Origin: a virus | Lineage: Duplodnaviria; Caudoviricetes | Strand: one strand, 5' to 3' | DNA length: 55,361 nucleotides | IMG/VR virus record: IMGVR_UViG_3300036781_000204 | Span: 1 to 55,361 of that record | In this document: in pieces, positions 3,940 to 50,270 of the stretch | How the letters are laid out: every line of letters begins with the position of its first letter | Position numbering within the stretch: position 1 is the first letter of the stretch | Notes under the pieces: generated by a model | Database searches by the model: none | What the model was told of the DNA's origin: nothing | The model's input: only the letters and a program-made list of their open reading frames with translations | Translations under genes and position numbers: made by a program

Positions 3940-4496
3940 TTGATGAACTCATTTAATTGATCTCGAGTGTTGTTCTTTCTCCCAAACTTGGAGTGAAATT
4001 CTATATGGTGTTTTAGACACAGCGTTGCTCCATTGCCAACCAAATATCGAAGATCTTTCCTGGTGGAAAAATTTTCAATGTGGTGTGGGTGAATTTCCCC
4101 TCCGGTGACTCCGCATTTAAGGCAGGTGAATTTATCCCTTTTGAAAACAGACTCTCGCCATATTTTCCACTCGCATCCCTTTCGGGATATTTTGGAATCA
4201 TCCACAAACGTGCGAACCCTTCTCGATTTAGCAATTCTGCTCATAAGCAGTCTCGTTTTAGTGCTGTGAGGATTCCCAGTCTTTCCGGTCTGCTGTTCAG
4301 ACCACCTCTGCCTTCGGCCTTTATCCCAACTGATTCCCTTCTGGGACGAATGAAATTTTGAATTGGGATGCAATCTCATACGGGCTGATGTTTTAATTCT
4401 AAAGGATTCAGAAACGGGGTGCCCCATGAGCGCTAACGAGTGGCGGCGTTTTCGCTCATCACTCCACGGCTTATGTTTGTAAACTCCTCTCGGCAT
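3936..4496 (-). CDS. HNH homing endonuclease with NUMOD3-like repeats
   Basis: 'WRESVFKRDKFTCLKCG...HPHHI...NGATLCLKHH'; N-terminal 'SDERKRRHS'/'HSTKTRLLMS'; start taken at MPRG (4496). Confidence 0.85.
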   Translation of the reverse strand: MPRGVYKHKPWSDERKRRHSLALMGHPVSESFRIKTSARMRLHPNSKFHSSQKGISWDKGRRQRWSEQQTGKTGNPHSTKTRLLMSRIAKSRRVRTFVDDSKISRKGCEWKIWRESVFKRDKFTCLKCGVTGGEIHPHHIENFSTRKDLRYLVGNGATLCLKHHIEFHSKFGRKNNTRDQLNEFIK

Positions 4497-4503
4497 GATT
4501 TTA

Positions 4504-4680
4504 TTATGGGCCGAAAATCCACACGAGAATCTTGTGGAAGTTGTCGATGCTAAGGGTTTCAGTGTCGCCGTTTTCAAACCGGCAGAGAGTGGTGTGGTCA
4601 ATCCCGATCTCGAGCGCCATCTTCCTCAGGGAGATTTTGTTCTCGGCACGGTAGGCTTTGATGAGTTGGCTGAGAATCAT
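4504..4680 (-). CDS. XRE-family HTH transcriptional regulator (58 aa; absent from the ORF track)
   Basis: Manual translation MILSQLIKAYRAENKISLRKMALEIGIDHTTLCRFENGDTETLSIDNFHKILVWIFGP; ATGA overlap with the upstream exonuclease. Confidence 0.85.
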   Translation of the reverse strand: MILSQLIKAYRAENKISLRKMALEIGIDHTTLCRFENGDTETLSIDNFHKILVWIFGP

Positions 4681-29070: not shown

Positions 29071-29979
29071 ATGGCATCGTATCCCATTCCGGCTTGGTTA
29101 TCTCCAGAGGCCGCTCACGGTTATGGTGAGTTGGCTGGCGCTGCCTCGCGCGCTGCCCAGTCCGCGCAGTTGCAACGCGAGCAAATGGCTCAGGAGTCTT
29201 CCCGCGCCGCAATGCAAGCCCAGATGGAGCAGCAGCGATTGGCGCAGCAGGCCCAACAGCAACAGCAACAGCTCGCTCAGGCGGCCAAGATTCATTCCGA
29301 CACGCTGAATCAAAATCTGTTGGTGCAGTCCCAGAAGATCGCCATCGACCAAGCCTACAAGAATTCCATCATTGGACTCAAGGCACAGGACAGCGATTTG
29401 AAGGATAAGGAATTTCAGGAGAAGACCAAGCAGGCCGCAGGGCGATTCGCGGCCACCCAAAGTTTCCAAAAGGCCATCCTGCCACCTGAGCAGGGCGGAG
29501 AAGGAATGGCCCCGCAGGATGCCGCGCTGAAATACATGGCGCCATTCATGACTCCCGACGCAGCCGGTCGCATGGCCACCATTCCAGCCCCTTTCAAAAT
29601 CGGAGCACCGGAAGCAATCGCAGGCCACCCCGATCTGGACGCACTGCAAACCAGCCGCAATGGATATAAGATTATTCCGAAGCCCCCAGCAACCGCGACC
29701 AACGCTCCAACCGCAGTGCCGATCACTGACGAGAACGGTCAGGTCATTGGCCACTGGGCTCAACCCCCTGGTGGTGGTAAGCCCCAGAGAATCGCTCAGA
29801 CGAAGACGAAAAATTCCGGTCTCGAGGACGCTCTCAAGGCATATCAGGCCCAGAAATCGGGTGGTGGAAAATCCATTCCTGATGCTCCTCAGAATCCGAA
29901 AGACCGAAAAAAAGACACGACTTACAATACGCCTAAAGGTGCATTGACTTGGACCGGCACCGGATGGGTTAAGCCATGA
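29071..29979 (+). CDS. Internal virion / ejection protein
   Basis: Q-rich coiled coil, C-terminal 'TWTGTGW'. Confidence 0.6.
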   Translation: MASYPIPAWLSPEAAHGYGELAGAASRAAQSAQLQREQMAQESSRAAMQAQMEQQRLAQQAQQQQQQLAQAAKIHSDTLNQNLLVQSQKIAIDQAYKNSIIGLKAQDSDLKDKEFQEKTKQAAGRFAATQSFQKAILPPEQGGEGMAPQDAALKYMAPFMTPDAAGRMATIPAPFKIGAPEAIAGHPDLDALQTSRNGYKIIPKPPATATNAPTAVPITDENGQVIGHWAQPPGGGKPQRIAQTKTKNSGLEDALKAYQAQKSGGGKSIPDAPQNPKDRKKDTTYNTPKGALTWTGTGWVKP

Positions 29980-32900: not shown

Positions 32901-35900
32901 TTGTCCAAAATGATGGACATTGAGAAGCGACAAACTCGCGGCCTGAATGATCGTCAGGCTATGGAAAATGTATTGGATAAACTTTATGAAAACCTCCAGA
33001 ACAGCGACACTCGCAGCGATTTCATCGAAAGGACGCTGGCTCAAAGCCGCACCCATGATCTTGAGACAGATCAAGCTATTCAAGAGCGGCTCGCGGAAAT
33101 CCGGACAGCGAAAAAATCCGGTGCTCGGGAGCTGAGCACTGCTCGGGACGTGGCGCCCACCACAGTTCGAGGAGTTCACGGCCCATTCCCGGAAGCACCC
33201 GAGCCGAAATTGTCGGAACCTAAGGCTCCTGAGAAACTGAGTGCTGAAGATCAGGCCGCTTTGGATGCCGAGATTCGCAAGCACGTTCCTCCGTCAGCTT
33301 CGCCCACTCTCCGTCGTCAGTTGGTTGAGCGTCAGGTTCCGCAAGAGCCCTACACGATTGGAAAATCCCGCCCCGTCACGAAGGTTGAATACGTTGACCC
33401 GGAAACGGGAGAGACTTACGAACAGCCCTACCGACCGAACGAGGCGACTCAGGCGGATTTGGAGGCTCAGGATGAGGCTGAGAACAAGCGCCAGCTTGAG
33501 GTGTTTCCGGAGCGCGAGATGCGTTCCGAGAAACCAGAGAAGCCCGCCCCCAAAGAGTCGCTGGCTCAGGAGAAGAAGGTCGTCGCCAAGGCTGAGGGCT
33601 CCAAAGGCCAACTGGATTTCTGGAAGCAGCAGCCGCCCGCCATGCGCCGTAAAGCCGCTCAGGTGAAGGAGAAAGTTGATGACTATCTCAAGCGCACGGC
33701 CGCGAATGTTTCCACCGCTGGAGATTTGTCCGACCAGCTTTACCGGCTGAAGTCCGGTGAGAAGGCCGATTATGATCTGGCCCTGCCGGTCATCAAAGCA
33801 TCGCTGCAATCCATCCCGGCTGAAGATCGTCCGGCGCTGCTCCATTACGCCGACGAGATGCAAGTGATGGGCAAGAGCAACATCAAGCTGACCGATGCTC
33901 AACACGCGATGTATGAGACGTTCCTGGAGCCGCTATTGCATGACAATCAGAAGATGTATTCCGATCTCCAGAAGGCTGGCGTGCCGGTTGGCGACTCCAC
34001 CTACCTTGGTCGTATCGTTCAGGACACGCACTCGTTGTATTCCCGTTTGGCGCGTGGTGTGAAGCAGCGAGTGACTGAGGGCTCCGTCCTTGGCCAGAGC
34101 GCCAGCTTTTTCAAACGCCGGGTGTTCAAGGCCGTTCAGGATGCTGAGGGAAACCGGAGGCTGGTGGCATTGGTGGGGACGGGGGAACGTACGAAGGTGA
34201 TTGCCTACGAAAACGGGAAGGCCGAGCTCTTGGGAAACATGCCTCCGAAAAGTTTGGAAGTGAAGCCGCTCACTGAGGTTCAGAAGCGAACCCAGCGCAT
34301 CGTGGAGGCCCGCAGGTTGCAGGAATTGGACGCGCTCGGAAAAGTGGAGAACCAACTCGAGTCCAAGAAGCGTCAACTCTCCGCCACACCTGAAGCGGCC
34401 GCCCAGAATGCCGCCCAGATCAAGGCCATCGACGGAAAGTTGAACGATCTGAACCAGGAATACGTTCGCGTGAACGACGCTTACCCGAGCCCAGTATTTG
34501 AGCAGCCTCGTTTCTGGACCGACAAGGCTGGAAATCAATGGGAGGTGACTGACGCCACCGTGGGTGAGATCGAGAAAAACACCAACACGCGCTACTACAA
34601 AGAGCCGATGTCGGGAATTATCACTCAGAATTTGAAGCTGAAGCAGATTTCTCGCGCGAACAATTTCCTCACCCAGTTGAAAGACTCCAGTGATTTCAAA
34701 CGAGTATCCCGCTCCGTGAATGAGCGCAACGTGCCGGAAGACTGGCGCACCGTGGACCTTCCACAATTCCGCGGGCTCCGCATTGAACCGCGCACCGCTG
34801 ACGTGCTCGATCAGTTCGCTGCCGAACAGAAAGGGCCGTCACTGCCGATGAAATACGTCAGTCATCTGACGAGTTTCCTGCGAAACGCTTTGTTCACCTG
34901 GAACCCATTCGTCCACGAGCCGAACCTTCTAGCTCACTGGTTCACCGCGCGCGGGGCTGAGTGGGCCAAGCCCGGCGGCTACGACCGCATGTTCAAGAGC
35001 GGCGTCGAGGCCATGAATGACGTGATGACTCGAAGCCGGTTCCGCGATCAAGCCCTTCGTGCCGGCGCCCCCTTGATGCGCGGGATGGGAAAGATGAACG
35101 CCGAGGTGATGAACCTTCTTAAAAAGGAGTTGGACACCACTCCAACGGTGGCTGGAAAATTGGCGCGCGGGCTCGGTTACATTAATCCTCTCCGGATGGT
35201 GCGAGCGTTCGGTGATTCGCTGACGTGGGGCACCAATGAAATCCTCACCCTCCAACTTATTCGTGAGACGATGCGCCGCACCGGGCTCCCGCTGGAAGAC
35301 GCGATCACTGAGGTTGGAAAACACATGCCGAACTACCGCGTTCCGCCGCGCGTCCTGAATTCCAGGCTGATCTCTCACGTCATGCAGAACCCGATGCTCT
35401 CTCTGTGGGGCCACTACCACTACGGCGCGCTGCGCTCATACGGTGAGATGGCCAAAGAAATTCTCAGTCCAAGCAGCACGATGCGCGAGCGGGTGGACGG
35501 CCTTGGCCGAGTCGCCACCATCGGTTTCCTGATGGCCGTCATGTATCCCGCGATTGATTCCGTTATCAACGAGATCATGAAGTCGAAAGGTTACAAGATG
35601 CGCCGCGCTGGTTCCGCAACGGCACCGCAGAACATTTTGGACGTGGCCCGAGGAAAGAAAACTCCCGAGGCCGCATTGCAGTCCATCGTGACTCCCTCCC
35701 CGGTTCCGATTGCGGCCGCTGAATTGTTGTTCAACCGAAATCTCCGGACGGGATTGCCGGTTTACGACCGATCACTCGGCAAGGACACAGCGAAAGACCT
35801 TGGCTCGTTTGCGGCAAGTCAAGTCTCTCCCATCCAAGAAGGGGGAAATGTTTTGGGCGGAAAGAAAAGCCTGAAAGAGTTCGGTCTCGGACTGGCTGGC

Positions 35901-36320
35901 ATCAGTCACACGCGAGCCGACAGTGCGATGGCTAAGTTTGGAAGATTGGCTGACCACTGGATGCAGAACAGCCCTGACCCGGCGATGCGCGAGCAATACA
36001 AACGCCGCACGTCGGAGGTGTTCCCGGAATCTGATTACCAGATGCTCCGGAGCGCGATCATCCGTGGCGACCAACGGGGAGGCCAGATGGCCGTTGAGAA
36101 GCTTTTGAAGACCCGGAAGCCTAGGGACGTGGCCACTAGAATTGAAGCGTGGAAGGATTCTCCGTTCACTGGAACGAAGAAAGGCGACGAAGCGATGATG
36201 AAGGAAATGACTCCTGAGCAGTGGGACTTGTGGTATCAGGCTGCTCAGGAGCGCATGGACATTGCTAACGGGATGATGATGAATCTGGCACAGAAGGTAT
36301 CGGAGGAACCGACCAAGTAA
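29976..36320 (+). CDS. Giant ejection / polyvalent protein (2114 aa)
   Basis: HEDIH (HExxH) motif, ART-like 'VRLYRG...GVYWSQDKTYA', repeated P.MRR linkers, helical C-terminal region; last gene of the virion module. Confidence 0.75.
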   Translation: MSELTDEDVFGSAAPATQTKELTDEDVFGAPQKKFGDDAYDRFKLEESKSSNLPSYPITVPPSMNPDWDFTRATKGSPVLALAGQAVSAIDKHIIGPAAATLMTQLKRSTAPETAIMGPGAHFPGERESDYSPITPEQKLIQLPHLTPKELEGATETERIAYAASNPLAETAEGLSTPGNIALLPFAEAKPVQAFFAAGAAAGIPESFQKLSEAKTPEEIVGAGSRLGINLGMAGTLIHSLGKEGAPNASQVQTPAAIHGDVQSQSIDIESEVSPAKSGGGVQSSPEAAQAQVPLRTKEHYDLLAEHWDDDKHEFKKLSDGRVMQANYETGKTEIDPDQFVQWVDKDLKGLNPKQKAAAVKSAFEHEDIHLKTDPEDAEPYWNSLSSFEQNVLKRQYLKGGADETPRNLGLEAIRNRVERAMGLERNDFIGMALRERWTAKSLDALANIVGKIRRLGDKELSAHQTAILDKVLSNIDAAKNATVALSGQPDDEESKYVEGPFMRRTAEPEPEKEGTVRLYRGHDGGNGGVYWSQDKTYASRMGEQMEYLDVPADKVSDYSVKKTEGSGTPNAFKLPPELTKEAKPLASEGVPTHNIDDIESPLPPTAPGERVVIVKRPDGSLYRAAYSGKQYDVSAGGKAMIEKYGGSKVDSIGTVNERGQWTHGLLPKGDKIIKGFSPYAAVERSGEPEGPAMRRKKGEDLSQEKLFGEPITSKGVPGQESVPEEKPSAEASGAREFAEEQTIFPHQIDFTQKSSDTPHEMPFRPITDSESKNPAELSKFLTSEGRIGGSDLPVSASRRMTVLFDKTNGKVHVVSTYRGDGVARMVDPSISGKNRPNKPIGELLHRYKPIYSILLGEPRQNYHQQFNSLADFYTQFGEEAKLMARQFGTGTQGIPQSPVRATGVRDPDFRGMAQEPAENFQYPSEHEPNLPRPEAPELRALHDFFGDELPSDRRMFETKLVRGAANASNQMISGLSKMMDIEKRQTRGLNDRQAMENVLDKLYENLQNSDTRSDFIERTLAQSRTHDLETDQAIQERLAEIRTAKKSGARELSTARDVAPTTVRGVHGPFPEAPEPKLSEPKAPEKLSAEDQAALDAEIRKHVPPSASPTLRRQLVERQVPQEPYTIGKSRPVTKVEYVDPETGETYEQPYRPNEATQADLEAQDEAENKRQLEVFPEREMRSEKPEKPAPKESLAQEKKVVAKAEGSKGQLDFWKQQPPAMRRKAAQVKEKVDDYLKRTAANVSTAGDLSDQLYRLKSGEKADYDLALPVIKASLQSIPAEDRPALLHYADEMQVMGKSNIKLTDAQHAMYETFLEPLLHDNQKMYSDLQKAGVPVGDSTYLGRIVQDTHSLYSRLARGVKQRVTEGSVLGQSASFFKRRVFKAVQDAEGNRRLVALVGTGERTKVIAYENGKAELLGNMPPKSLEVKPLTEVQKRTQRIVEARRLQELDALGKVENQLESKKRQLSATPEAAAQNAAQIKAIDGKLNDLNQEYVRVNDAYPSPVFEQPRFWTDKAGNQWEVTDATVGEIEKNTNTRYYKEPMSGIITQNLKLKQISRANNFLTQLKDSSDFKRVSRSVNERNVPEDWRTVDLPQFRGLRIEPRTADVLDQFAAEQKGPSLPMKYVSHLTSFLRNALFTWNPFVHEPNLLAHWFTARGAEWAKPGGYDRMFKSGVEAMNDVMTRSRFRDQALRAGAPLMRGMGKMNAEVMNLLKKELDTTPTVAGKLARGLGYINPLRMVRAFGDSLTWGTNEILTLQLIRETMRRTGLPLEDAITEVGKHMPNYRVPPRVLNSRLISHVMQNPMLSLWGHYHYGALRSYGEMAKEILSPSSTMRERVDGLGRVATIGFLMAVMYPAIDSVINEIMKSKGYKMRRAGSATAPQNILDVARGKKTPEAALQSIVTPSPVPIAAAELLFNRNLRTGLPVYDRSLGKDTAKDLGSFAASQVSPIQEGGNVLGGKKSLKEFGLGLAGISHTRADSAMAKFGRLADHWMQNSPDPAMREQYKRRTSEVFPESDYQMLRSAIIRGDQRGGQMAVEKLLKTRKPRDVATRIEAWKDSPFTGTKKGDEAMMKEMTPEQWDLWYQAAQERMDIANGMMMNLAQKVSEEPTK

Positions 36321-37703: not shown

Positions 37704-39449
37704 TTAAATGTCCGGGTCGATTGGTGATTTTTTAGGTGGCACTTTCCAGTTATTACTACGCAGTTCGTTCATGAGTCTATCAGCCTCCTTCTTGGTCATG
37801 TTGGTGGTTTCGTAGCCGAATTTCTTCAGCGTGTTACAGGTTCCAGGGCCAGCCAGTCGATTCTTGAAACGACGCATCGTCTCGACAAACAACTGCTTAG
37901 CTTGAGGGTATTCGTAGTCGTCAGGATTGATACCTGCCCGACGCAGCAGGCCTTGTTGTTTCTCACTCAGCTTCTTTCCAATGGTGTCGCCGCGAGCGCG
38001 CGCCGGCTGAATATCATAAGCATCGAACGGGTCCACTTTGACCGTAGTGAATTTAGACCGCGCCACGATCTTGCCCCTCCGACCTTCCGAGTCTCGTTTC
38101 GCTCTATCAATTCGCTTCTTTATGATCTCCTCCGAGTCCTCCAGCAAGTCAGAAACTCGGAACACATCTTCTTTTTCCAGCGCCTTCTTTTTCGCCAGCG
38201 CCAGCACTCGGTCAGTCACGCGACCACCGAGAATATCCGCCACGGTAATCAGCTTATGCCGGCCGCTGTTGCCCACGAAATCGCAAACCAGTAATCCCTT
38301 TTTGTAGGAGGCGTTGATGGCTTCCTTACGAGCGTTGGCGGTTTCGATTCCGTCCACCAGTTTACGGAGCGGACGAGTTCCACGTCCGATGATCTGGGTG
38401 TAAAGGCTGCGGCTTTTTGTGGCACGCGCCATGACGACGACTTCCACTTCTGGACAATCAAACCCCTCAGTGCAGATGCCGACGTTCACGAGAACCTGAA
38501 GTGTTCCATTTTTGAACTCCTCAAACATTGAACGCCGCTCACCCTTGGGAACCTTGTCCCACACCGCCGCCGCCATGCCTGGTTTCACCCGGTTCATGAT
38601 CTCAGCGAACCTCTGGGCCTGAATGACGCTCGTGCAGAACACCAGCGTCCGCCTCGGATTTCCGTGCTTCACGATCACTGATGCCCAATCACTCACTGGA
38701 GAATAATCCAGGCGGTGCAGGGGCAGTCCCGATGACACCTCTAGAGTCGGCTGAATCATTCTCTGCACTGTGTCCTCGTCCTCCATTACCTCAGACAACT
38801 GACCGAGATTCAGATCTCCGGCAGTCGTCTCGATGTGTGAGTAGTCGAGCCCCTGAACGGGAATCATCATCTGGTCGATGGGCACCAGCCACCCATCCAT
38901 GATTCCGTCTATGATGTCGTATTCGTAAACCGTCTCTTTGAAGATTTGACCGAGCGCTTCGTTGTCCGCGCGGTCAGGGGTCGCCGTCATCCCCAGCATC
39001 TTCATGCTGGAATTTTGGAAGTAGTAATCGACAACCTTCTTGAAAGACGGGGCGGGAAAGTGGTGGCCTTCATCTCCCACCAGTAATCCGAAACTGTTCG
39101 GATTGAATTTCTTCATTCGACCACCGTTGAATCCGGCGTTCTGGGTTTGGATGGTGCTGATGATGACGGGCACTTTACTAAAGATTGAGTCGTTGGCCTT
39201 TTGGTCGGCCATCTCGATCTCACATTCAAGCCCGGTGAATTCTCGAATGGTGTCACGCGCTTGATAGATCAGCGTGTCGCGGTGGGCGAGTACGATGGTC
39301 CGCGCGGGCTGGATTCTCTTGATGACTTCAGAGATGATGCAAGTTTTCCCAAGCCCGGTGGCCAACACGCCGAGCACTGAATTAACCCCTCGGTCCCACG
39401 CCTCAAAAATACAATCCGTGCAGTCGGACTGGTAGTCCCTCATTTTCAT
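37704..39449 (-). CDS. SF2 helicase (ResIII/Irc3-like DExH)
   Basis: Q motif RDYQ, ATGLGKT, DEGHH, TATP, EGFDCP, QIIGRGTR. Confidence 0.92.
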   Translation of the reverse strand: MKMRDYQSDCTDCIFEAWDRGVNSVLGVLATGLGKTCIISEVIKRIQPARTIVLAHRDTLIYQARDTIREFTGLECEIEMADQKANDSIFSKVPVIISTIQTQNAGFNGGRMKKFNPNSFGLLVGDEGHHFPAPSFKKVVDYYFQNSSMKMLGMTATPDRADNEALGQIFKETVYEYDIIDGIMDGWLVPIDQMMIPVQGLDYSHIETTAGDLNLGQLSEVMEDEDTVQRMIQPTLEVSSGLPLHRLDYSPVSDWASVIVKHGNPRRTLVFCTSVIQAQRFAEIMNRVKPGMAAAVWDKVPKGERRSMFEEFKNGTLQVLVNVGICTEGFDCPEVEVVVMARATKSRSLYTQIIGRGTRPLRKLVDGIETANARKEAINASYKKGLLVCDFVGNSGRHKLITVADILGGRVTDRVLALAKKKALEKEDVFRVSDLLEDSEEIIKKRIDRAKRDSEGRRGKIVARSKFTTVKVDPFDAYDIQPARARGDTIGKKLSEKQQGLLRRAGINPDDYEYPQAKQLFVETMRRFKNRLAGPGTCNTLKKFGYETTNMTKKEADRLMNELRSNNWKVPPKKSPIDPDI

Positions 39450-39814
39450 GACGGCCACCGCCTGTCGTTCATTTTCTTACGGTGCATTTCGATGTGCTTT
39501 GACTGGGTGGTGACATCCAGATTTTTGTCTGAATTGTTCCTTTTATTTTCATCTTTATGATGGACGATCTCGCCGGGGCGAAGCGGTCTCCCGATTTTTA
39601 TCTCAGCCACAATTCTGTGGAGGTGACGACCGTGGAATTTTATATATCCCCTTCCAGCCCCGCGTCCACGCCTGGTGTTTCCTATCTTATCGGCATTGAA
39701 TTTCCCATTGCCGCGATTCCTACAAAGTGCGGAACAGAACTTTGCGGTGAGAGCCCGATATGGCCTAACGCTGAATTCTGCTCCGCACAACTTGCATATC
39801 AAATTTACCTTCAC
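39446..39814 (-). CDS. HNH endonuclease
   Basis: Zn ribbon CxxC..FCS..C; 'HRIVAE...VHHKDENKRNN...NL'. Confidence 0.85.
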   Translation of the reverse strand: MKVNLICKLCGAEFSVRPYRALTAKFCSALCRNRGNGKFNADKIGNTRRGRGAGRGYIKFHGRHLHRIVAEIKIGRPLRPGEIVHHKDENKRNNSDKNLDVTTQSKHIEMHRKKMNDRRWPS

Positions 39815-40615: not shown

Positions 40616-40852
40616 TTATTTTACCTCCTTGTTCTGGTGGAAGCTGCGTTCGATCTTTTCGCCACATCCCATGCAGTGACCGTTAGCCACCATGAAGTGA
40701 CTGCACGGAAAGTGCTGGCTTGCCGATCTTTCCAGTTCGAGTGCGGCCTTGGATAATTCTTCGGCGCACTTCTGGATGTATTCCAATCTTCCAATCCGGC
40801 GCGCGGACAATAATTTTGTCCACGCATCTTCATACTGCTGTCGTCTGTCCAT
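40616..40852 (-). CDS. Hypothetical protein
   Basis: AAAGGACA precedes ATG 40852; CxH...CxxC. Confidence 0.55.
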   Translation of the reverse strand: MDRRQQYEDAWTKLLSARRIGRLEYIQKCAEELSKAALELERSASQHFPCSHFMVANGHCMGCGEKIERSFHQNKEVK

Positions 40853-41702
40853 GATTCTGTCCTTTCCATTGTTTAAACTGTTCGCAAAACTGAGATACTG
40901 AGCAATAATTCTCGCAGCGCGGCCTCTCGGCAGGACGCACTTCGATTGAGTAAGCTGACGGACTGGCTTGGGACGCGATGAATTGGCCGGCATCCAGTTT
41001 TGTGGCGAGAACTCTGGACGCTTTCACATTTCCCTTCTTCATCACCGCGTATTTTTCCGGCCGCTCCCACATTTCGTCGGGGGCACATTGGGGAAGCAGT
41101 CCGTTCCGGGCAGCGATGTGTAGCGCCATCCGGTTGCTCATCCACAGCTCCGTCATGTTCTTTTCCCAGATGCGAACGGGCAGCACCCGAACCTGCGACT
41201 GGGGATATGATTTGTCGCGCGATGCTTCAGCCACACTCCAATCTCGGAAGATCGCTATGATTCTCAACTCCTTCACTTCGACACCATAGGCGTCAGCGAG
41301 ATATTTGTAGCAGTTGAGCTGCTGCTCCCACTCCGGCTTCACGCCGTCCCTCACCGCCCATAGTGAAGTGAATTTGTAATCGTCGATGGCTTTGTCGGGT
41401 TCGCAGTAATCGATCTGGCCGGAGATTTTCTTCCCCTGGAGCTCGACGATGCAGCGCTCCTCAACAATTCCTCCGTTCGATGATCGCCGGAGAACTTCGT
41501 GACCAGCGCTGCCCATGAGTTGCCACAACCGATCACTGGCGTCTTCCTCCAGTTCGTCTTTGTGGATTATTTCCAGCGCAGAGATGCGCGGTGGTTTGAC
41601 GAGCTCGGTGACGCTGAAGTCAGCGCCGCCTTTGTCGTAAACCGAGTGACTGACTGCCCGAACTAGCGGCTCGGGCAAACCGAATTTATTTGTGATTTTC
41701 AT
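40830..41702 (-). CDS. PD-(D/E)XK exonuclease (Cas4/RecB-like)
   Basis: 'G...HE', 'SGQID', 'DYK', 'QLNCY', C-terminal Cys cluster 'RCENYCSVSQFC'. Confidence 0.85.
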   Translation of the reverse strand: MKITNKFGLPEPLVRAVSHSVYDKGGADFSVTELVKPPRISALEIIHKDELEEDASDRLWQLMGSAGHEVLRRSSNGGIVEERCIVELQGKKISGQIDYCEPDKAIDDYKFTSLWAVRDGVKPEWEQQLNCYKYLADAYGVEVKELRIIAIFRDWSVAEASRDKSYPQSQVRVLPVRIWEKNMTELWMSNRMALHIAARNGLLPQCAPDEMWERPEKYAVMKKGNVKASRVLATKLDAGQFIASQASPSAYSIEVRPAERPRCENYCSVSQFCEQFKQWKGQNHGQTTAV

Positions 41703-42626: not shown

Positions 42627-43535
42627 TTATTTATTCTTCAGTTCTTCCATAGTAAATACTATGCCAGCCACCTCACGGATTTTAGACACCGCGTTCCTGC
42701 ATGTCTTCAGCAGCCACTCGTAGTGCTCTTTATTTCCACGTATCTGCTCCACCTTTTTCTCATTGCAGTAAAAGAACAGTGCGCTCGAAAGCGCCAACAC
42801 GGTGCGTTGCTGATTGGCTGTCCCGCCTTCCAAATGTGTCGGCCTTTCAATGAACTTCTGGAACTGAAGCACTGGGCTGGTTTTGGGTAAATTGGCCAGC
42901 TCGTTAAACTCTGTGGCAAATAAGTCTGCCGTGTCGGGTTCGACAGTTCTTAGAAGCGCCAATGGAGCGAGTATCCTTCCAGAGTATTTCTGGGAAGGCG
43001 CGTGGTTGGCACCCAGTATTTCAATGAGGGAGACGAAGTGATTCTTCATAAGGTTCGCCACCGCCATTCCCTGTGGGTTGCTCATCGCTCGGTCGCCAAA
43101 ACTAGTCACCATTAGCGCGAGTATTCTAGAGGCGCTGGCTATGGAGGAACTATACATAAATCCGTTGATTCCTAGCTGCTCCCCCAATGCCCGCTTACGA
43201 CCAATATCAAAGGTATCTATGGTTTTAAGGCTTTTGTTCACGTTCTCTGGAAGGTCCCACAGGACAATCATTGAGATCGTCACACCACTCCTAACTACAG
43301 CCGCTAAGCGATGTTGGCCGTCGAGTAGATTGCCATCAACGTCAAATGAGATGCCTTGGCCTGTCAGGGACCAATTTCCACCTTTCATATCCATTGCATA
43401 AATTTTAACCGTTCGTTCGTTCAATAGTCGTTGACGGAACTTCCCGTCCACTTGAGACCTTGAATGCTTTTCCAGTATTTCCATTGCCCATTCGGGTGTA
43501 ACCTGACGTATTTCCGATCTTGGTTTGCTGCTCAT
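42627..43535 (-). CDS. ParB/Srx-like protein (DGQHR motif)
   Basis: 'YA.DM..G.W..TGQGI.FD..G.LLDGQHRL.A'. Confidence 0.75.
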   Translation of the reverse strand: MSSKPRSEIRQVTPEWAMEILEKHSRSQVDGKFRQRLLNERTVKIYAMDMKGGNWSLTGQGISFDVDGNLLDGQHRLAAVVRSGVTISMIVLWDLPENVNKSLKTIDTFDIGRKRALGEQLGINGFMYSSSIASASRILALMVTSFGDRAMSNPQGMAVANLMKNHFVSLIEILGANHAPSQKYSGRILAPLALLRTVEPDTADLFATEFNELANLPKTSPVLQFQKFIERPTHLEGGTANQQRTVLALSSALFFYCNEKKVEQIRGNKEHYEWLLKTCRNAVSKIREVAGIVFTMEELKNK

Positions 43536-43573
43536 AATTGTCCCTTTTTTGGTTTTTGGTTTTAATTTCCGGC

Positions 43574-44734
43574 TCAAAAATCGTAGTGATCTTCGGCTGC
43601 ATCCAGTGCAAGCCGGAAGTTCTTCATGAGTTCAATTTCAGCGTCCGGCTTACGCACGCCGTTGTAGCTCTCCTCGACTTCGTAATTCTTCACCCATCCG
43701 TAGAGCTTCTTTTTATCTAGCTCTCCGATGGGTGTTCCCTGCTGGGCACCGAATGGAACGCAAACAGCCTTCCACCAGAGCACGTCCGGCTGACGGTCGC
43801 CATCCATGAACGCCTTCAGCTCCGCCATGATCGAGTCATACTGCTTTTTGACCGTCGGCACGTATTGGTTCGGCAGGTCTTCCAAGGCCTGCGTGTCGGT
43901 TAGCCACCCATTCGCCGTGAAGTATTGCATGGCAGATGTCCTGTAATCGGACAGAGCGGCGAGGAACCGGAACCGCTGATCTTTGTCCGCCTGCGCCGGG
44001 GGTGCCATTTGGGGCGCAACATCCTCAGTTCTGGCCGCTGGCCTTGAAGCGGGCTGGGGGGCTGGCGCTGCGTTTGGACGCTGGGTGGTGTCTTGAGACC
44101 CTCCAGACCGTCCTGGGGCATTGCGTGGACTTCGGCGCCTCTCGCTTTCCCGTTCCCACCACCCGGCACACCAGTCTTTTTTCCACGCTTGGAGTCCAAT
44201 TCCGAGTTCCTTGGCACACCGACGTAGGGCGGCAGTTTTTGCCCCCTCCACGGCGTCACCATAATTCTGGGTCTGGTTTTTCTTGTAGTAAACCATGTCG
44301 CCGACGGCCTCTGCCACAAAACAGCCGCGGACGAGCAACATTGCTTCGACGTAAATTCGGGTTGCGTCATCTCCGGTGGATGTTTTGAAGTCCTCACCCC
44401 ATCGGCTGCGGGGAACGATTGCCCACTGGCCCAAGCCGAACACGTTGTTCAACCGATCACGCAAAAAAGCGTGTTCGATGTAGATCAGGTTTTCTTTTCC
44501 GCCGGCTCCCGGCTTGAACGCTTCATCCGGAAAGTCGGCCTTCAGCGCCGCGCATTCTTCCGGGGTTAGGTTCAACATGCTCGCGCGCTCATACGCCTTC
44601 AGCGTCAGATTGGCCACTGCGTCCACGCGAGCCTGGGCCGGCGTCGTGGGGGCTGCGGGTGCTGGCGGTGGAAGGGCTGGGTCGCGGAGCTGCACTGCGG
44701 ACGATTCAACTGGGATTGCATCTTGTTCGTTCAT
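43574..44734 (-). CDS. Rad52/Mgm101-like single-strand annealing protein
   Basis: 'IYIEH..LRDRLNNVFG.GQWAIVPR...EGAKTAALRRCAKELGIG..W'; C-terminal 'PFG..QG..IGEL' domain. Confidence 0.8.
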   Translation of the reverse strand: MNEQDAIPVESSAVQLRDPALPPPAPAAPTTPAQARVDAVANLTLKAYERASMLNLTPEECAALKADFPDEAFKPGAGGKENLIYIEHAFLRDRLNNVFGLGQWAIVPRSRWGEDFKTSTGDDATRIYVEAMLLVRGCFVAEAVGDMVYYKKNQTQNYGDAVEGAKTAALRRCAKELGIGLQAWKKDWCAGWWERESERRRSPRNAPGRSGGSQDTTQRPNAAPAPQPASRPAARTEDVAPQMAPPAQADKDQRFRFLAALSDYRTSAMQYFTANGWLTDTQALEDLPNQYVPTVKKQYDSIMAELKAFMDGDRQPDVLWWKAVCVPFGAQQGTPIGELDKKKLYGWVKNYEVEESYNGVRKPDAEIELMKNFRLALDAAEDHYDF

Positions 44735-45114
44735 TTTGTTTTGTGTGTTTCGGCGTGGTGGTATTTGCAGAGCCACGTCACTTGAAGTGGTTTGGAATAA
44801 TCGTCATGGTGCGCCTCCACTATTGGATTGCCACACTCCTGACATGGGGATTTAGAAAGAGTGCCGTTTCTTGCAGCGTCTCTCGCGATACGGCGGGCGC
44901 GCATCTTCACTCGGAGTGATGGCGTGCGCCAATATCGTGAGAAATTCCGCAGTTCTCTTGCTCTGTTTTCGGGGCGGGAACGCCAGCGCCTTTTATTTCG
45001 TCTGGAGTGCGCCTTGGTCTTTGGGGAGCTCTTGGAATTTTTGAGCGGCCGGCCTTCGATTTTTCTCCTGATTCGATACTCTTTGGCGTAGGCACGTCTC
45101 TGTTCGACTGTCAT
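44731..45114 (-). CDS. HNH-like endonuclease
   Basis: 'PCQECG...EAHHDDYSKPL.V.WLC..HH...H'. Confidence 0.8.
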   Translation of the reverse strand: MTVEQRRAYAKEYRIRRKIEGRPLKNSKSSPKTKAHSRRNKRRWRSRPENRARELRNFSRYWRTPSLRVKMRARRIARDAARNGTLSKSPCQECGNPIVEAHHDDYSKPLQVTWLCKYHHAETHKTK

Positions 45115-45264: not shown

Positions 45265-46371
45265 TCACCCCCCACCGTAACCGCTCCAGTCCGGGTCTCC
45301 CGGCATGGATTCAGTTGAGGGAGCGTCGGTGATTGAGGGTTTATCTCCAGCTCCGATAGCCTTTGGAGCTGGTATCGACTGCTCCTCAAACTCGGCTGCG
45401 ATAATCTCACTCGCGAAATTCGGCATCTCGCGTTCCAAGTCATCCACATCGCACTTATGATGCAGGCAAGCCTTGAGAATAACTTCGTGAGCCCCCAGGG
45501 AAAGGTCGTTCATGGCATCCTGAACTTCCTCGAGCTCGAATTGAGAATGCTTGATCTCGAAGACTATCTCCTTCCACGCCGCCCGCGCCCTCTGCCATAG
45601 TGGAACTGTCTCGGACGAAAACGTCGAGTGAGTGTTTGAATTGGAGTGATAGTCGGGAAACATGCTTGGCGAGGCCGACACCTCCGGTTTCTTGATCTCG
45701 ATCATGTTCAATTTCCAGATCTCGGGAAATGGAACCGTCGATGGTTCGCACATCTGACGACGTGCCGTGATGCTGCGAATGTCTTTCGGAAGGAACTTTT
45801 GGAACTGCACCGGACACTCGGCCATGATGTCGCCAGTATCCCAGAACCAGCTCAGGTCCGGCTCGAAGCACAGCCCCTTTCGATAGAATCGCGCATGAAT
45901 GTCGTGCAGCTTCTCATCCATCTTTCCCACGGTGATGTGGATTCCATCCTGACCTTTTTCATTTTCCAAATCCACGCCGGACTGGAATGCGCTCATTGAG
46001 CAATGGTGATGAACCGTGCCGAAGTAAAGCCACGTCGCATCGAACTGCTCGCGTTGCTTTTTCGACTCATCGTTCACGACTTCACGTGCCGACATTCCGC
46101 TCTTGGCTTCCTGGGGATATGCCCACGCAGCCCACGTCTGCTCCTGCACGTTGACGTAGAGGCGAACTTGCGACTCGCTTTTGTAGGTATCGTAAGTCCA
46201 TTTGAAGAACGCCAGAACTCGCTGCCATTCCTCTTTTGGTATATTCGGCCCCACCCATGTCAGAGATGCCGACGTTTTCTCGATCTTGTGCTCGAACGAG
46301 CACTCGAATAGTCCATCGATCTCCTCCGACTCGGAGATGACCTTCTTATTTTTATCATGTTTCATTTTCAC
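45265..46371 (-). CDS. JAB/JAMM metallopeptidase (deubiquitinase-like)
   Basis: Upstream Glu (SESQV) plus HxH-x7-S-x2-D (HHHCSMSAFQSGVD); 'DGIHITVG'; acidic C-terminal tail. Confidence 0.85.
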   Translation of the reverse strand: MKMKHDKNKKVISESEEIDGLFECSFEHKIEKTSASLTWVGPNIPKEEWQRVLAFFKWTYDTYKSESQVRLYVNVQEQTWAAWAYPQEAKSGMSAREVVNDESKKQREQFDATWLYFGTVHHHCSMSAFQSGVDLENEKGQDGIHITVGKMDEKLHDIHARFYRKGLCFEPDLSWFWDTGDIMAECPVQFQKFLPKDIRSITARRQMCEPSTVPFPEIWKLNMIEIKKPEVSASPSMFPDYHSNSNTHSTFSSETVPLWQRARAAWKEIVFEIKHSQFELEEVQDAMNDLSLGAHEVILKACLHHKCDVDDLEREMPNFASEIIAAEFEEQSIPAPKAIGAGDKPSITDAPSTESMPGDPDWSGYGGG

Positions 46372-46411
46372 TGAGTCTGTCCTTTCTTTTTGTTTTGGTT
46401 TTTTAATCGCC

Positions 46412-47275
46412 CTAACCTTCCGAATCCAACCGAGAAGTGGTTCCCGGAGAAATCCTGTCCAGAAGAACTCTCAAGTTTGCCTTAACCTCGCGCTGGTTCC
46501 AGCTCCAATTGAATTCGTCATTGTCACTGGCTTCGTGGTTTGAGTATTCATAGCCCCCGTCGATTTGATCTGGCTCAGGAACGGCAATCCAGCTAACATT
46601 ATTGCTAATACTGTCATCCATGAGATCACGAATGCTATCCATGAAATCCTCCCAAGTATCGGACTCATCTGCTTCTCGGATGATGTCCTGCTCCGTTAGT
46701 TCCACACTTCCGGAACCTCTCATCACTACCGAGTAATCAGCCGTTCCTGACTCGGGTTGGGCCGCCTCAAACGAGATGCTTAAATAGGACGGTCTCGGCG
46801 CTACGCTGACCGGACGTGGGCTTGCTGGGGCTGGCGACGGCCAACCTGGAAGCTCTGGTGGGTCGTAGTTAAACTCAATCCATTTCTTGATCTGTGCATA
46901 TGACACACAGTCATCGGGGATTGTGATGTTGAGGTGAGCCAGAATCACGGCGCGAACCGTGTTGTTCTGGGGAGCCACCTTTATGAGGTTGATGACGCTG
47001 GTCGGAAGCACTCTGTCAATCGTGCATTTCTGAACCTGCGCGACCACCGCAGGATTCGCGGCCGGGTCTTCCTTTGGAAGTTCCGGCGGTGGTGATGCGC
47101 CAGGGTCAGAGTTCACGATATTGTCGATTCGAGTGATGGTCTCCGACACCTGTTCGGCGAGAGACCGTGCGAGCGACAAGTCACCATTGTCCGGTGGTGG
47201 CAGGGGGTCGGGAGTATATATATTCGTAATAGGCTCCGGGGGCTCATCCTCCCAATTATCAAACTCGTTACTCAT
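46412..47275 (-). CDS. Acidic Pro-rich protein of the Ubl operon (function unknown)
   Basis: 287 aa between E1 and JAB; AAAGGACA upstream. Confidence 0.7.
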   Translation of the reverse strand: MSNEFDNWEDEPPEPITNIYTPDPLPPPDNGDLSLARSLAEQVSETITRIDNIVNSDPGASPPPELPKEDPAANPAVVAQVQKCTIDRVLPTSVINLIKVAPQNNTVRAVILAHLNITIPDDCVSYAQIKKWIEFNYDPPELPGWPSPAPASPRPVSVAPRPSYLSISFEAAQPESGTADYSVVMRGSGSVELTEQDIIREADESDTWEDFMDSIRDLMDDSISNNVSWIAVPEPDQIDGGYEYSNHEASDNDEFNWSWNQREVKANLRVLLDRISPGTTSRLDSEG

Positions 47276-47984
47276 CTTGCTGTCCTTTCATTTCGGTTTC
47301 TGGTTCGGTTGTTTTAAGGGCGTCGGAGATTTTGAATGTCTCCAGCTTGGTCATGTTCGCCACGAGGCGATACGGCAGGCTGCCTCTGGTCTTTTCGCTG
47401 AACTTGTCAGCCTTCAAATGCCAGAGCGCAAACAGATGACCGGCCAGTGAAGCGGCCAGCGAATTACTCGTGACGAGCTGAAGGTTCGCCTTCTGAGCCT
47501 CGCCGGTGCAACCGGCCGACCGGGATCTCGGGTCGCCACTATGGTCAGTGAGGATGTCGGGGAAGTAAACCCTCGGGTCGATCTTTGTCTCCTTCCACGC
47601 AGACTCGTAGTAATACGCCTCCGCGGAGTGAGTCTCGTTCGCCGCGAAGATGGCGCGACACTCGTGACGGTCACACTCACCGAGCGCAGCTCGACGAGCG
47701 GCGTGATTGTCCACGCAGACGATTATCCAATCGCTTTGGCGGAACTCCAGCAGTCCCTCACAAAACCATTCCGGTCTTGATTGGCACTGGTAGCGTTCAG
47801 CGAGTGCATCGGCCTTGTTCCGACCCACATCCTTTTGATTGAACAACTGACGGTCGAGGTTTTTGCTCTCGAGCGTGTCGCCGTCGATCATGGTGATGAG
47901 TTTCGGTGAAGTGAGCAGCGTGAGAGCTGGCACCAACCAGGAGCCAACGCCTCCGCATCCAATGATATAGATATTTCCTTTCAT
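47268..47984 (-). CDS. ThiF/E1-like adenylating enzyme
   Basis: GCGGVGS, IDGD, NLDRQ, K, CVDN..AR, candidate catalytic Cys in 'AGC(T)'. Confidence 0.92.
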   Translation of the reverse strand: MKGNIYIIGCGGVGSWLVPALTLLTSPKLITMIDGDTLESKNLDRQLFNQKDVGRNKADALAERYQCQSRPEWFCEGLLEFRQSDWIIVCVDNHAARRAALGECDRHECRAIFAANETHSAEAYYYESAWKETKIDPRVYFPDILTDHSGDPRSRSAGCTGEAQKANLQLVTSNSLAASLAGHLFALWHLKADKFSEKTRGSLPYRLVANMTKLETFKISDALKTTEPETEMKGQQDE

Positions 47985-48316
47985 ACGATTATTTGTGTGT
48001 CCCGATTTCGTTGAAGGACGCCGACGATTGTCACGGCCGGATTCGGCTTAGTGAGATCGCTGTTCATCCTTTCTCTAGTGCGATAAATGATGGCATCGAA
48101 CAATTCCAGATCGTGCATTGATATGTATTGAGTCCTTACCGATGTAGACATTATGAGAAGGACGGCCGTGGCCGTGTGTCCAAAGACAACCCTCCCTATC
48201 TCGTCTTGGATTTGAAGTATTCCTGATTTCAAGGAATCCTCAATGGCAGTCCGATTATCAATTCGATAGACGGCACTATTAAGCGCCTCCACCAGTTCTG
48301 GATTTGGTTGGCTCAT
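47981..48316 (-). CDS. Hypothetical protein of the Ubl operon
   Basis: ATGA-coupled to both E2 and E1. Confidence 0.6.
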   Translation of the reverse strand: MSQPNPELVEALNSAVYRIDNRTAIEDSLKSGILQIQDEIGRVVFGHTATAVLLIMSTSVRTQYISMHDLELFDAIIYRTRERMNSDLTKPNPAVTIVGVLQRNRDTQIIV

Positions 48317-49050
48317 AGCACGATGTATTTAAGGATTGCGGTTGATACCTTATTACAAAGTCTCCACCATTCACCTTCGATTGGCAGAGTTTGAAATCCA
48401 TCTTTGAGAGGCTTGAAGTGGAAGAATTTGGAAGTGATTCCGTTGTCGTCTCCGTAATACAAATCCGTGTTATACGGCGCGCTGCGGAACTGGGCGATGG
48501 CCTTCTCCACCGACTCAAACGCGGTTGGAGAGACTGAGCTGTATTCCCCGTTGCAAATCTCACCCGTGTCATAGATGTTCGCCATCGGCATCCGGTAGGC
48601 GTTTCCATCTTTGCTGAAGGCGAATAGATACTGCTTCAGCACTCGAGCCCCGCTAGGTCCCGATGCAACGTGAGCGACGAATCGAATCAGTGGAGTGTCG
48701 CGGCCAGCCAGGGCTTGCTCAACATTCCATGCAATCGACAATTTCGGGTCCGACTTCGCGAACGTGGGAACCAGTTGGGCGTCCTCGCCTTCACCGGAAG
48801 CCTTGAACGTGCTTTTGAAGACGATCTCCGCCAGCGGAATCGTCCAGTATTGTGTGCTATCCTTCGGGTCGATGGACACATTCACCACGCCACACCCAGG
48901 CATCGTGAACATATTCTTGACCTTTAATATCGCACCGGATGAGAACGCTTTTCCAAGCGCTTCTCCAGGGTCGATTTCGTCCTCCGTGACGGAGCGACGA
49001 ACCATTCTACCGTCGGCGCTGATCGCCCATTCTGCTTTTACAATTGGCAT
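48313..49050 (-). CDS. Prokaryotic E2-like conjugating enzyme (Prok-E2 family D / PRTRC protein B-like)
   Basis: 'YRMPMANIYDTGEICNG...F..AP.N.DL' with candidate catalytic Cys. Confidence 0.75.
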   Translation of the reverse strand: MPIVKAEWAISADGRMVRRSVTEDEIDPGEALGKAFSSGAILKVKNMFTMPGCGVVNVSIDPKDSTQYWTIPLAEIVFKSTFKASGEGEDAQLVPTFAKSDPKLSIAWNVEQALAGRDTPLIRFVAHVASGPSGARVLKQYLFAFSKDGNAYRMPMANIYDTGEICNGEYSSVSPTAFESVEKAIAQFRSAPYNTDLYYGDDNGITSKFFHFKPLKDGFQTLPIEGEWWRLCNKVSTAILKYIVL

Positions 49051-49069
49051 AATCTGTCCTTTTTAAATG

Positions 49070-49104
49070 GAAAAACCGGCCGCAAGGTTTCGCCCCACGG
49101 CCGG
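49070..49104 (-). terminator. Intrinsic terminator between Ubl and E2 genes
   Basis: Minus strand CCGGCCGTGGGG-CGAAA-CCTTGCGGCCGG-TTTTT. Confidence 0.75.
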
Positions 49105-49121
49105 AGTTATTTTTGTTTTCG

Positions 49122-49367
49122 TTACGCCGCCACGAGTTCGAGCTCGTTGGCTTTCGTATTCGCAGCGGTCTCAACAAGCACCTCTGCGTCCGGCGGAACG
49201 ATGGCCTCGTCCGGCATCGTGACCCCGTTAATCATGAGGTTCACGTTGTCGCCGTAGCCCAGTTGGGCACGAAGGTCTTCGTCGCGTCGGATGGAACCGA
49301 TGGTGATGGGCGAGGAACTCTCGAGAGGTTCCACGTCCACTCCATATTTAACTCTGCATTTGAACAT
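49122..49367 (-). CDS. Ubiquitin-like (beta-grasp) protein
   Basis: 81 aa; 'T(I)G.I...L....NV.LMING...D..V..DAEVLVETAANTKA' ThiS/MoaD-like pattern; adjacent to E2, E1 and JAB. Confidence 0.75.
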   Translation of the reverse strand: MFKCRVKYGVDVEPLESSSPITIGSIRRDEDLRAQLGYGDNVNLMINGVTMPDEAIVPPDAEVLVETAANTKANELELVAA

Positions 49368-49412: not shown

Positions 49413-49703
49413 TTACAGAGCTGCTTGAGTGCCGGCGCCGGTGTTGACCGCAACCGTGGTCGCTTCAGCCAGCTTCACGGCCAGGTCGTTCACTTCAGCC
49501 TGCGCCTTGCCGATTTCCTGCTGGAGCACCGCGATGCGCTTGTCGCTTTCCGCGTTCTCGGCATCAATCGCGGACTTCCGCGCGTTGTTCACACGCTGCG
49601 TTTCCAGCTCACCGTTCACGGACTGAATCAGCGGCTTGATACGACGGTCAGCGAGTGCGGTGACTTGGGTATTGACGTAGGCTTTAACTTGATCTGCGTT
49701 CAT
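49413..49703 (-). CDS. Coiled-coil hypothetical protein
   Basis: Heptad-rich; directly upstream of the Ubl gene. Confidence 0.65.
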   Translation of the reverse strand: MNADQVKAYVNTQVTALADRRIKPLIQSVNGELETQRVNNARKSAIDAENAESDKRIAVLQQEIGKAQAEVNDLAVKLAEATTVAVNTGAGTQAAL

Positions 49704-49826: not shown

Positions 49827-50270
49827 TCAATACTTTGCGAACTCTCCGTGGAGAGTTTTTATCCTTTCCTCAGCATACTGTTTGGCCTCGGCCAATTTTT
49901 TGAAGTATCGAACCTTATCCCTTTTTCCGTCTTTAGTGATCTGGACGATGAACTTTTTGGCGCCTTTATGCCAGTGAACACATTTTACTCCCGTAGTATT
50001 GTTGGATAAACGCTCTCGGTTCATTTGATTTTGAGACTTGGTGCAGAGACGCAGGTTGGACTTTCGGTTATCCAACTTATTTCTGTTTTTATGGTCTCGC
50101 TCCATTTCATAAGGACAGTCAATAACGTCCCAATGCATGTGGTGTGACAACCCGTCAACCTTTCTCGCGGCATATCTCCCGGTGAAGTGCCACTTGAATT
50201 TGGAGAGTCTTTCAAAATCATCGTCATCGACGATTGCCTCCTTTCCTTGTGTTAATTTTATAGTTTTCAA
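49827..50270 (-). CDS. HNH-AP2 homing endonuclease
   Basis: 'IKLTQGKEAIVDDDDF', 'DHKNRNKLDNRKSNLR', AP2-like 'TGVKCVHW...F..LAEAK'. Confidence 0.9.
   Translation of the reverse strand: MKTIKLTQGKEAIVDDDDFERLSKFKWHFTGRYAARKVDGLSHHMHWDVIDCPYEMERDHKNRNKLDNRKSNLRLCTKSQNQMNRERLSNNTTGVKCVHWHKGAKKFIVQITKDGKRDKVRYFKKLAEAKQYAEERIKTLHGEFAKY

Follow-up and report, generated by a model that had tools for sequence, protein, structure and literature searches.

Ubiquitin-like protein (Ubl) conjugation in prokaryotes has, to our knowledge, been demonstrated so far only as bacterial anti-phage defence, in the cyclic oligonucleotide-based anti-phage signalling system (CBASS) and in Bil, with Bub added by context. 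Related gene sets form the PRTRC/6d class, which has been known bioinformatically since 2006 and for which we know of no assigned function. PRTRC stands for a ParB-related, ThiF-related cassette and corresponds to operon type 6d in the relevant passages of Iyer, Burroughs and Aravind (2006; PMC1779556). The DNA described here, referred to throughout as the window, is the entire IMG/VR virus record IMGVR_UViG_3300036781_000204 (Caudoviricetes; 55,361 bp, 98% complete by CheckV). It contains an operon of six co-oriented minus-strand genes at positions 45265-49367, arranged in the order Ubl-E2-X-E1-Y-JAB. This operon probably encodes the phage's own ubiquitin-like conjugation cascade, distantly related to the PRTRC or "type 6d" cassettes of plasmids and integrative and conjugative elements. 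The E2 and X genes overlap by 4 nt, as do X and E1, while E1 and Y overlap by 8 nt, and these overlaps give the pattern of translational coupling. Gaps of 40 nt and 71 nt separate Y from JAB and Ubl from E2, respectively.

The E1 gene (47268-47984, minus strand) encodes a single-domain, ThiF-type protein of 238 aa containing the motifs GCGGVG, NLDRQ and AGCT, with Cys159 located in the segment GCTGEAQ. The protein scores 64.7 bits against Pfam ThiF (PF00899; cut-off 28.1), and its best NCBIfam match is PRTRC_ThiF (TIGR03736) at 47.4 bits (E 1.5e-12), below the cut-off of 144.75. Residues G9, G11, G12 and G14, D34, R45, K57, D92 and Cys159 are invariant in all 12 sequences compared. Alignment with the PRTRC ThiF of plasmid NZ_AP018719 using hhalign gives 98.8% (E 6e-17) across 171 columns, with the Cys aligned. 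A search of the PDB with the E1 profile returns 62 E1-family sequences at E <= 0.001, of which the SUMO, UBA5, NEDD8 and ubiquitin E1s are the best (E ~1e-10, best 8e-11), with ThiF (5.5e-7), Cap2 and BubCD placed behind these Ubl-activating enzymes. All PADLOC matches of the E1 are to CBASS E1-E2 models and cover only the Rossmann segment (residues 4-66); the other five operon proteins have no PADLOC match. Judged by its sequence, the 238-aa protein is a ThiF-type E1 consisting of one domain.

The second gene (48313-49050, minus strand) encodes an E2-like carrier enzyme of 245 aa which contains the stretch ANIYDTGEIC. A k-mer search identifies 2 relatives and an exhaustive hidden Markov model (HMM) search identifies 381 representative clusters (E <= 0.001), nearly all of 230-250 aa; ten of ten clusters sampled originate from metagenomes only and are named "hypothetical protein" at most. 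An alignment of 72 sequences, composed of the window protein, the 2 first matches and 69 of the 150 relatives listed, has P155, N158 and C166 as its sole invariant residues (72/72). These three are spanned by PMANIYDTGEIC and form a P-x-x-N-x7-C loop, the spacing of which we take to be that of the HPN...Cys loop in UBC enzymes. Prok-E2_D (PF14460) is the only Pfam family matched by the relatives (8/72 at E <= 0.01, best 7.8e-5), and one of the 72 matches PRTRC_B (TIGR03737) at E 5.2e-4. The window E2 has no match in Pfam, NCBIfam (PRTRC_B, E <= 0.01), PHROG or PADLOC; a six-frame search of the phage with PF14460 yields one match, positioned on the Cys loop of this protein (15.2 bits, cut-off 25). 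Comparison with PRTRC_B by hhalign gives 95.3% for one plasmid sequence and 87.9% for a four-sequence profile (103 columns), with both the Cys and the P..N aligned. At this level of sequence comparison, homology of the E2 to prokaryotic E2 family D / PRTRC_B is well supported. Its AlphaFold2 model has a pLDDT (predicted local distance difference test) of 94.5. The whole model matches nothing in the PDB at E <= 0.001 with Foldseek, and the E2 profile finds nothing meaningful among PDB sequences. In a VIA-wide comparison of 48,161 chains the top match is UBE2S, and 14 of the 50 matches listed are named E2, UEV, RWD, FANCL or Cap2 proteins. A UBC fold of the 245-aa protein is weakly supported.

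At the opposite end of the operon, a JAB/JAMM metalloprotease-like protein of 368 aa, with extra N- and C-terminal regions, is encoded at 45265-46371 (minus strand). The motif E...HxH-x7-S-x2-D, made up of E66, H121, H123, S131 and D134, is invariant in 12/12 sequences, with HHHCSMSAFQSGVD forming its HxH-x7-S-x2-D portion. Pfam Prok-JAB matches 7 of the 12 relatives at E <= 1 (best 6.4e-5) and the window protein at E 0.17 (12.2 bits, cut-off 25); the six-frame search of the window for JAB returns no match. Against NCBIfam PRTRC_A (TIGR03735) the protein scores 17.9 bits (E 0.0018; cut-off 101.8), and its profile has no meaningful match in the PDB.

The Ubl gene (49122-49367, minus strand) encodes 81 aa, identified as a ubiquitin-like beta-grasp modifier from the open reading frame (ORF), a structural model and homologs. 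The protein has no match in Pfam, NCBIfam, PHROG or PADLOC, and the model for PRTRC protein C (TIGR03738) does not match by hmmscan or in a six-frame search at E <= 10. Metagenomic homologs number 61, of which 35 were aligned with the window protein for AlphaFold2 modelling. The model has a mean pLDDT of 87.4, with residues 68-81 being low, and consists of strands 2-8, 11-17, 42-46 and 61-67 and a helix at 23-36. Foldseek comparison with the PDB retrieves ubiquitin-like proteins at TM 0.6-0.7 and a root-mean-square deviation of 2.2-2.9 Å, with 5 matches at E <= 0.001; SUMO, ISG15, FAT10 and ubiquitins, including BfUbb (from Bacteroides fragilis) and that of Caldiarchaeum, recur throughout the top 50.

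A conserved tail, ETAANxKA (residues 66-73), follows the beta-grasp core and is itself followed by an 8-residue extension in the window protein. Throughout the Ubl alignment E66, T67, A68, N70 and K72 are invariant, and A69 and A73 are nearly so. The homologs differ in where they end: 21 of the 61 stop at K-A and 40 are extended by 1-25 residues, 24 of these by 7, for which the usual pattern is xxEL[A/V/L]xA. In addition, the gene of three related loci (L010-L012) encodes two head-to-tail Ubls, the first copy retaining its complete tail motif where the two meet. A second di-Ubl, independent of these, occurs in L052, and P0213 comprises three beta-grasp units, of which the first and the last bear the tail motif. 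A precedent for C-terminal trimming exists in BilC, which pre-processes the C-terminus of BilA (relevant passages of PMC10557695). Based on the conservation of the tail, the extensions and the tandem Ubls, the protein is read as a precursor that loses the residues beyond K-A, as BilA does through BilC, and the sequences suggest that the JAB carries out this processing. A further protein, P0214 (281 aa), was considered as a Ubl-E2 fusion and rejected as it looks like a frameshifted read-through. Mimicry of a transfer-messenger RNA degradation tag by the Ubl extension is not supported, the tags of two operon-bearing metagenome-assembled genomes (MAGs; ANQQMAYAA and ANENYALAA) sharing only the Ala-rich end.

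In the spacer that separates the Ubl and E2 genes, a hairpin scan identifies a GC-rich hairpin at 49066-49104 (minus strand) with a 12-bp stem, 9 G-C pairs and a T-run. A comparable hairpin is present in the Ubl-E2 spacer of 13 of the 14 related loci folded (L002-L012, L015 and L019), although its sequence is not conserved. The structure is a putative attenuator, terminator or mRNA-stabilising 3' hairpin and may set the ratio of tag to enzyme; it would fit high expression of the Ubl and lower read-through into the enzyme genes.

The remaining two genes, X (47981-48316, minus strand; 111 aa) and Y (46412-47275, minus strand; 287 aa), have no match in Pfam, NCBIfam, PHROG or PADLOC, and the ESM Atlas provides no usable lead for either. 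X diverges rapidly. An ORF occupies the X slot in 11 of the 11 complete loci found through the Ubl, with a mean column identity of 19%, and the X HMM recovers it in 14 of 21 loci. Y has a Pro-rich N-terminus and an acidic C-terminal part and is conserved in all complete loci, including the segment around P102, N104 and R108; its profile has no PDB match. Y lacks similarity to PRTRC E, PRTRC F and a 336-aa plasmid protein, and X is likewise unrelated to them. Speculatively, X and Y could be adaptor or specificity subunits, possibly replacing an E2-E1 fusion or an E3.

Much of this gene content had been proposed in a first-pass annotation made from the letters of the DNA. Its six co-oriented, tightly packed genes are confirmed by the ORFs and their overlaps of 4-8 nt, and its 81-aa beta-grasp-like protein by the model and its structural matches, so that the first circumstance named there as refuting the idea, a lack of the beta-grasp, does not apply. 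The E1/ThiF with GxGGVG, NLDRQ and a Cys in AGCT passes the Pfam cut-off with its glycine loop and Cys159 invariant, the JAB motif is intact as described, and the two proteins that could not be named still match no family. The E2 proposed from ANIYDTGEIC has gained an invariant Cys and a homology to Prok-E2_D/PRTRC_B, but its UBC fold is the part that stands on weak support.

The same gene order recurs in other phages, synteny having been suggested as a check in the first-pass annotation. Searching IMG/VR with the Ubl recovers 12 contigs, 11 of which have the arrangement Ubl-E2-(X)-E1-Y-JAB, the twelfth being cut. A search for related loci using the single E1 protein as query gives no match; the E1 alignment was used in its place and leads to MAG contigs. 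In IMG/VR, the E1 recovers 21 contigs of 27-72 kb, 12 already found via the Ubl and 9 new. All five recognisable genes are in order in 19 of these 21 loci, and contig ends truncate the remaining 2. Nine of the 21 contigs played no part in HMM building, and eight of those nine are complete. In distant loci the operon genes are still detected by BLAST, whereas the flanking genes are not. Three MAG contigs (L015, L019 and L020) have the same gene order, with phage replication genes as neighbours. Across this group of soil phages, all uncultured, the operon keeps a fixed place in the replication/recombination, or early, arm.

Homologs of the window terminase (51-68% identity) occur in 6 of 10 carrier records, with none in two nearly complete ones (66 and 69 kb). 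Since the terminase is common to only 6 of the 10, at least two phage lineages carry the operon. The MAG bins in which the operon is found are assigned to Verrucomicrobia, Geobacteraceae, Anaerolineales, Terriglobia and Cloacimonadota. With the window terminase as query, no terminase is found in five operon-bearing MAGs, and host assignment from the bins is therefore unreliable. Two variations of the locus were observed along the way. An extra ORF lies between E1 and Y in three loci (L010:9277-10479, L011:9589-10440 and L012:9616-10722); its C-terminus is HNH-like by eye, which suggests a homing-endonuclease insertion. On a Cloacimonadota MAG contig (L021, 4910-6678) a JAB gene stands directly upstream of E1, a PRTRC-like order, with DnaB-like, Cpn10 and PolA-exonuclease genes as neighbours and no Ubl or E2 homolog by BLAST. 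This may be an intermediate arrangement.

Compared with the PRTRC cassette, for which NCBIfam TIGR03734-03742 served as reference models, the window operon shares a separate small Ubl, an E2 with a P..N..C.G loop, a JAB-like protein and a short single-domain ThiF E1 with a conserved Cys. The E1 and E2 of the two are demonstrably homologous. In both, a Lys and a small residue close the Ubl, beyond which extensions may follow, and both are carried by mobile elements beside replication genes. The canonical PRTRC_C ends exactly in ...G[TA]KG in 2 of 4 sequences and is extended in the other 2. There are also differences. The window set misses every NCBIfam cut-off, whereas a canonical PRTRC in the temperate Burkholderia phage BgVeeders33 exceeds the cut-off for all models. 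The order Ubl-E2-X-E1-Y-JAB contrasts with E-C-(F)-B-A-ThiF in PRTRC. The window set lacks ParB and the PRTRC proteins D, E and F (no match to ParB-family or PRTRC D/E/F models among the 11 window ORFs scanned with NCBIfam) and has the unrelated X and Y in their place. The Ubl tail ends in Ala in the window family and in Gly in PRTRC, and some window-family members have tandem Ubl genes, unlike PRTRC. The window JAB shares only the catalytic motif with the PRTRC JAB-like protein. Furthermore, the type 6d E2 has a conserved His after the Cys, as described in the pertinent section of PMC1779556, which is not conserved in the window E2 family. The link to PRTRC drawn in the first-pass annotation holds for E1 and E2; the set itself fails every threshold of PRTRC membership. 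The description that suits these sequence features best is that of a new, rearranged and strongly diverged variant of the PRTRC/6d class. Carriage of this class by a phage is already in print, though not read as Ubl conjugation: in the Burkholderia gladioli prophage AB2 a PRTRC is interpreted as a "ParB/ThiF partitioning cassette" (PMC13366799, in the portion dealing with it). The literature searches returned no paper describing a phage E1/E2/Ubl/JAB operon as a conjugation system, this one being the closest.

Bil (BilABCD) also combines a Ubl, an E2, a JAB and an E1, and there the JAB both prepares the C-terminus of the Ubl by pre-processing and is able to undo conjugation (relevant passages of PMC10557695). 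The Bil E1, as presented there, comprises an inactive and an active adenylation domain and a mobile Cys domain, in contrast to the single 238-aa domain of the window E1. The Bil Ubl ends in Gly where the window Ubl has a K-A tail, and Bil is a host defence system whereas the window operon is a phage core operon; no sequence-level match to Bil was found for the window proteins. Type II CBASS uses E1 and E2 chemistry together with a JAB protease in Cap2/Cap3, and the Rossmann segment of the window E1 matches the PADLOC E1-E2 models and Cap2 in the PDB. In CBASS a single fusion protein combines E2 and E1, and the CD-NTase itself takes the part of the "Ubl". The window differs in its separate E2 and E1 with X in between, its dedicated beta-grasp tag and the lack of a nucleotidyltransferase family among the window ORFs scanned with Pfam (11 ORFs at E <= 0.01 and 56 further ones at E <= 0.001). 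Eukaryotic polyubiquitin and Ubl precursors resemble the window family in their head-to-tail repeats, each with the tail motif, and in their variable extensions after the conserved tail. They end in G-G rather than K-A, however, and most window relatives are single-copy, with cleavage here a prediction from sequence.

Taken as a cascade, the operon would operate as follows. The Ubl would be transcribed in excess of the enzymes, the hairpin after its stop codon terminating or stabilising most transcripts. The JAB would then trim the residues after ETAANxKA from the 81-aa precursor and separate tandem Ubls, exposing Ala73, as the conservation of the tail and the BilC/BilA precedent suggest. By homology, the E1 would adenylate the Ala73 carboxylate and take the Ubl onto Cys159, from which it would presumably pass to Cys166 in the P-x-x-N-x7-C loop of the E2. 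Transfer to lysines of phage or host target proteins would follow, and the JAB could also reverse the mark. A prediction of the complex between the E1 and Ubl residues 1-73, run without controls, scored 0.01 against a mark of 0.32 and carries no weight either way.

Several observations weigh against this cascade and its relation to PRTRC. While folds, motifs, homology and synteny are observed, we infer every biochemical step. The window's own E2 and JAB reach no curated Pfam or NCBIfam threshold. The E2 aligns with PRTRC_B of phage BgVeeders33 at only 5.1% by hhalign, and the JAB with PRTRC_A at 2.4% and 2.4% using single sequences; against the PRTRC_A profile the JAB attains 35% (E 4e-4), in the motif region only. 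The Ubl has no sequence similarity to any PDB chain in a profile search, nor to PRTRC_C (hhalign 0.1-1.1%), and its tail lacks the usual C-terminal Gly(-Gly). With respect to trimming, 57 of the 61 homologs end in Ala at any tail length and none in Gly, so the extended forms, which have a terminal Ala of their own, could be used unprocessed. Multi-beta-grasp Ubls of Bub and Bil also act as one unit and are not cleaved precursors, according to PMC11601603.

Mobile elements often carry defence genes, and the same conjugation chemistry could serve the phage as a defence or exclusion system towards its competitors, in the way that bacteria are served by Bil and type II CBASS. The characterised bacterial E1/E2/JAB systems are indeed anti-phage (PMC11601596 and PMC10557695, in the parts describing them), and the E1 has PADLOC matches to CBASS E1-E2 models without exception. 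These matches are limited to residues 4-66, however, and involve no other operon protein; the operon holds a fixed replication-arm position in 19 of 21 contigs and exceeds the neighbouring genes in conservation, unlike variable defence islands, and no integrase family occurs among the window ORFs scanned. Defence against competitors is thus an unlikely purpose. Because the operon is fixed in the replication/recombination arm across the phage group, we favour a part in the early programme of the phage itself over that of an accessory defence island, namely the modification of phage or host proteins, possibly as counter-defence. Tagging during takeover and the jamming of host Ubl defence were suggested as roles in the first-pass annotation.

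Adenylation need not lead to conjugation at all. In a sulfur-carrier pathway, or another non-conjugating one of the ThiS/MoaD/CysO/QbsE kind, the E1 would convert the small protein to a thiocarboxylate or give it an otherwise modified C-terminus, the JAB would only mature the carrier and the "E2" would be no carrier enzyme. This would accommodate a ThiF-type E1 and the weakly supported E2 fold, and there are pathways in which sulfur carriers owe their maturation to JAB proteases (Iyer et al., 2006; PMC1779556, in the passages on these operons). It is nonetheless improbable, given that the E2 has an invariant Cys in its P-x-x-N-x7-C loop and homology to PRTRC_B/Prok-E2_D, and that the E1 profile fits the Ubl-activating E1s (E 8e-11) better than ThiF (E 5.5e-7). 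Moreover, the two Pfam scans find no rhodanese, ThiG, MoaE, cysteine synthase or desulfurase family among the window ORFs, in agreement with the absence of sulfur-relay partners recorded in the first-pass annotation. We regard as more improbable still a DNA-partitioning or maintenance cassette in which the Ubl machinery regulates segregation of a plasmid-like prophage. PRTRC has been so interpreted in B. gladioli prophage AB2, but only as a proposal by that paper's own account in the portion concerned (PMC13366799). Near the operon, three genes downstream, a 316-aa phrog_5931 protein (42627-43577, minus strand) has a DGQHR-type motif reminiscent of ParB/sulfiredoxin. The protein has no match in Pfam, NCBIfam (E <= 0.01, including the ParB models) or the PDB, however, and of 12 related loci only one, L007, has a homolog close to the operon. 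In addition, a Pfam scan of the 56 further window ORFs (E <= 0.001) finds no integrase or plasmid-replication family.

If the phage does use its own Ubl to tag proteins, this chemistry would run opposite to its usual direction, from host against virus, and the operon could supply a first function for the PRTRC-like class. The system has tractable features, namely small separate proteins, a clear candidate cleavage site and natural tandem-repeat substrates, and, given the Lys-Ala tail, trypsin treatment should reduce the tag on modified lysines to one remaining Ala. A fuller picture, which we put forward tentatively and consider rather doubtful as a whole, is that a ubiquitination-like pathway belongs to the core early functions of probably lytic soil phages. 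Its polyubiquitin-style precursor, with Ala in place of Gly as the reactive end, would be cut by the JAB, produced in attenuator-driven excess and attached to host or phage proteins by a minimal E1/E2 pair, with X bridging E2 and E1 and Y conferring specificity. No earlier protein-tagging system operated by a bacteriophage would then be known, and host proteins might be disarmed by it.

With regard to the rest of the genome, family scans place primase-like, helicase and exonuclease genes, an Mgm101/Rad52-type annealing protein and several HNH endonucleases in the minus-strand arm, and give only a weak match for the terminase. The middle of the window consists of long plus-strand genes, nearly all without a family match; a 2114-aa ORF at 29976-36320 (plus strand) has no PHROG or Pfam match, like most plus-strand genes. 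Reference libraries cover this phage group very poorly. A collection of deposited phages contains no DNA match to the window, and tblastn with the E1 gives 28 records in this collection, none covering at least 80% of the query. One deposited phage, Bajarodcaudo virus 1 (L030; PQ006092; ~98 kb, from rodent faeces), has a gene at 3803-4657 annotated as "E1 enzyme family protein". This gene is situated in a replication module and flanked by hypothetical proteins, its neighbours match no PRTRC model, and it may belong to another unrecognised phage E1 system.

Closer to the operon, HNH genes are present at 44731-45114, 49827-50270 and 39446-39814. Two genes downstream, near an exonuclease gene at 40830-41702, a 400-aa protein (43574-44776, minus strand) matches Pfam Mgm101p (E 3e-16) and Rad52_Rad22, identifying a single-strand annealing protein of mitochondrial type. 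Immediately upstream of the Ubl gene, a coiled-coil-looking protein of 96 aa is encoded at 49413-49703 (minus strand). It is present at 63-68% identity in three related loci (L002, L003 and L006) and also in L019, and its gene may share a transcription unit with the operon.

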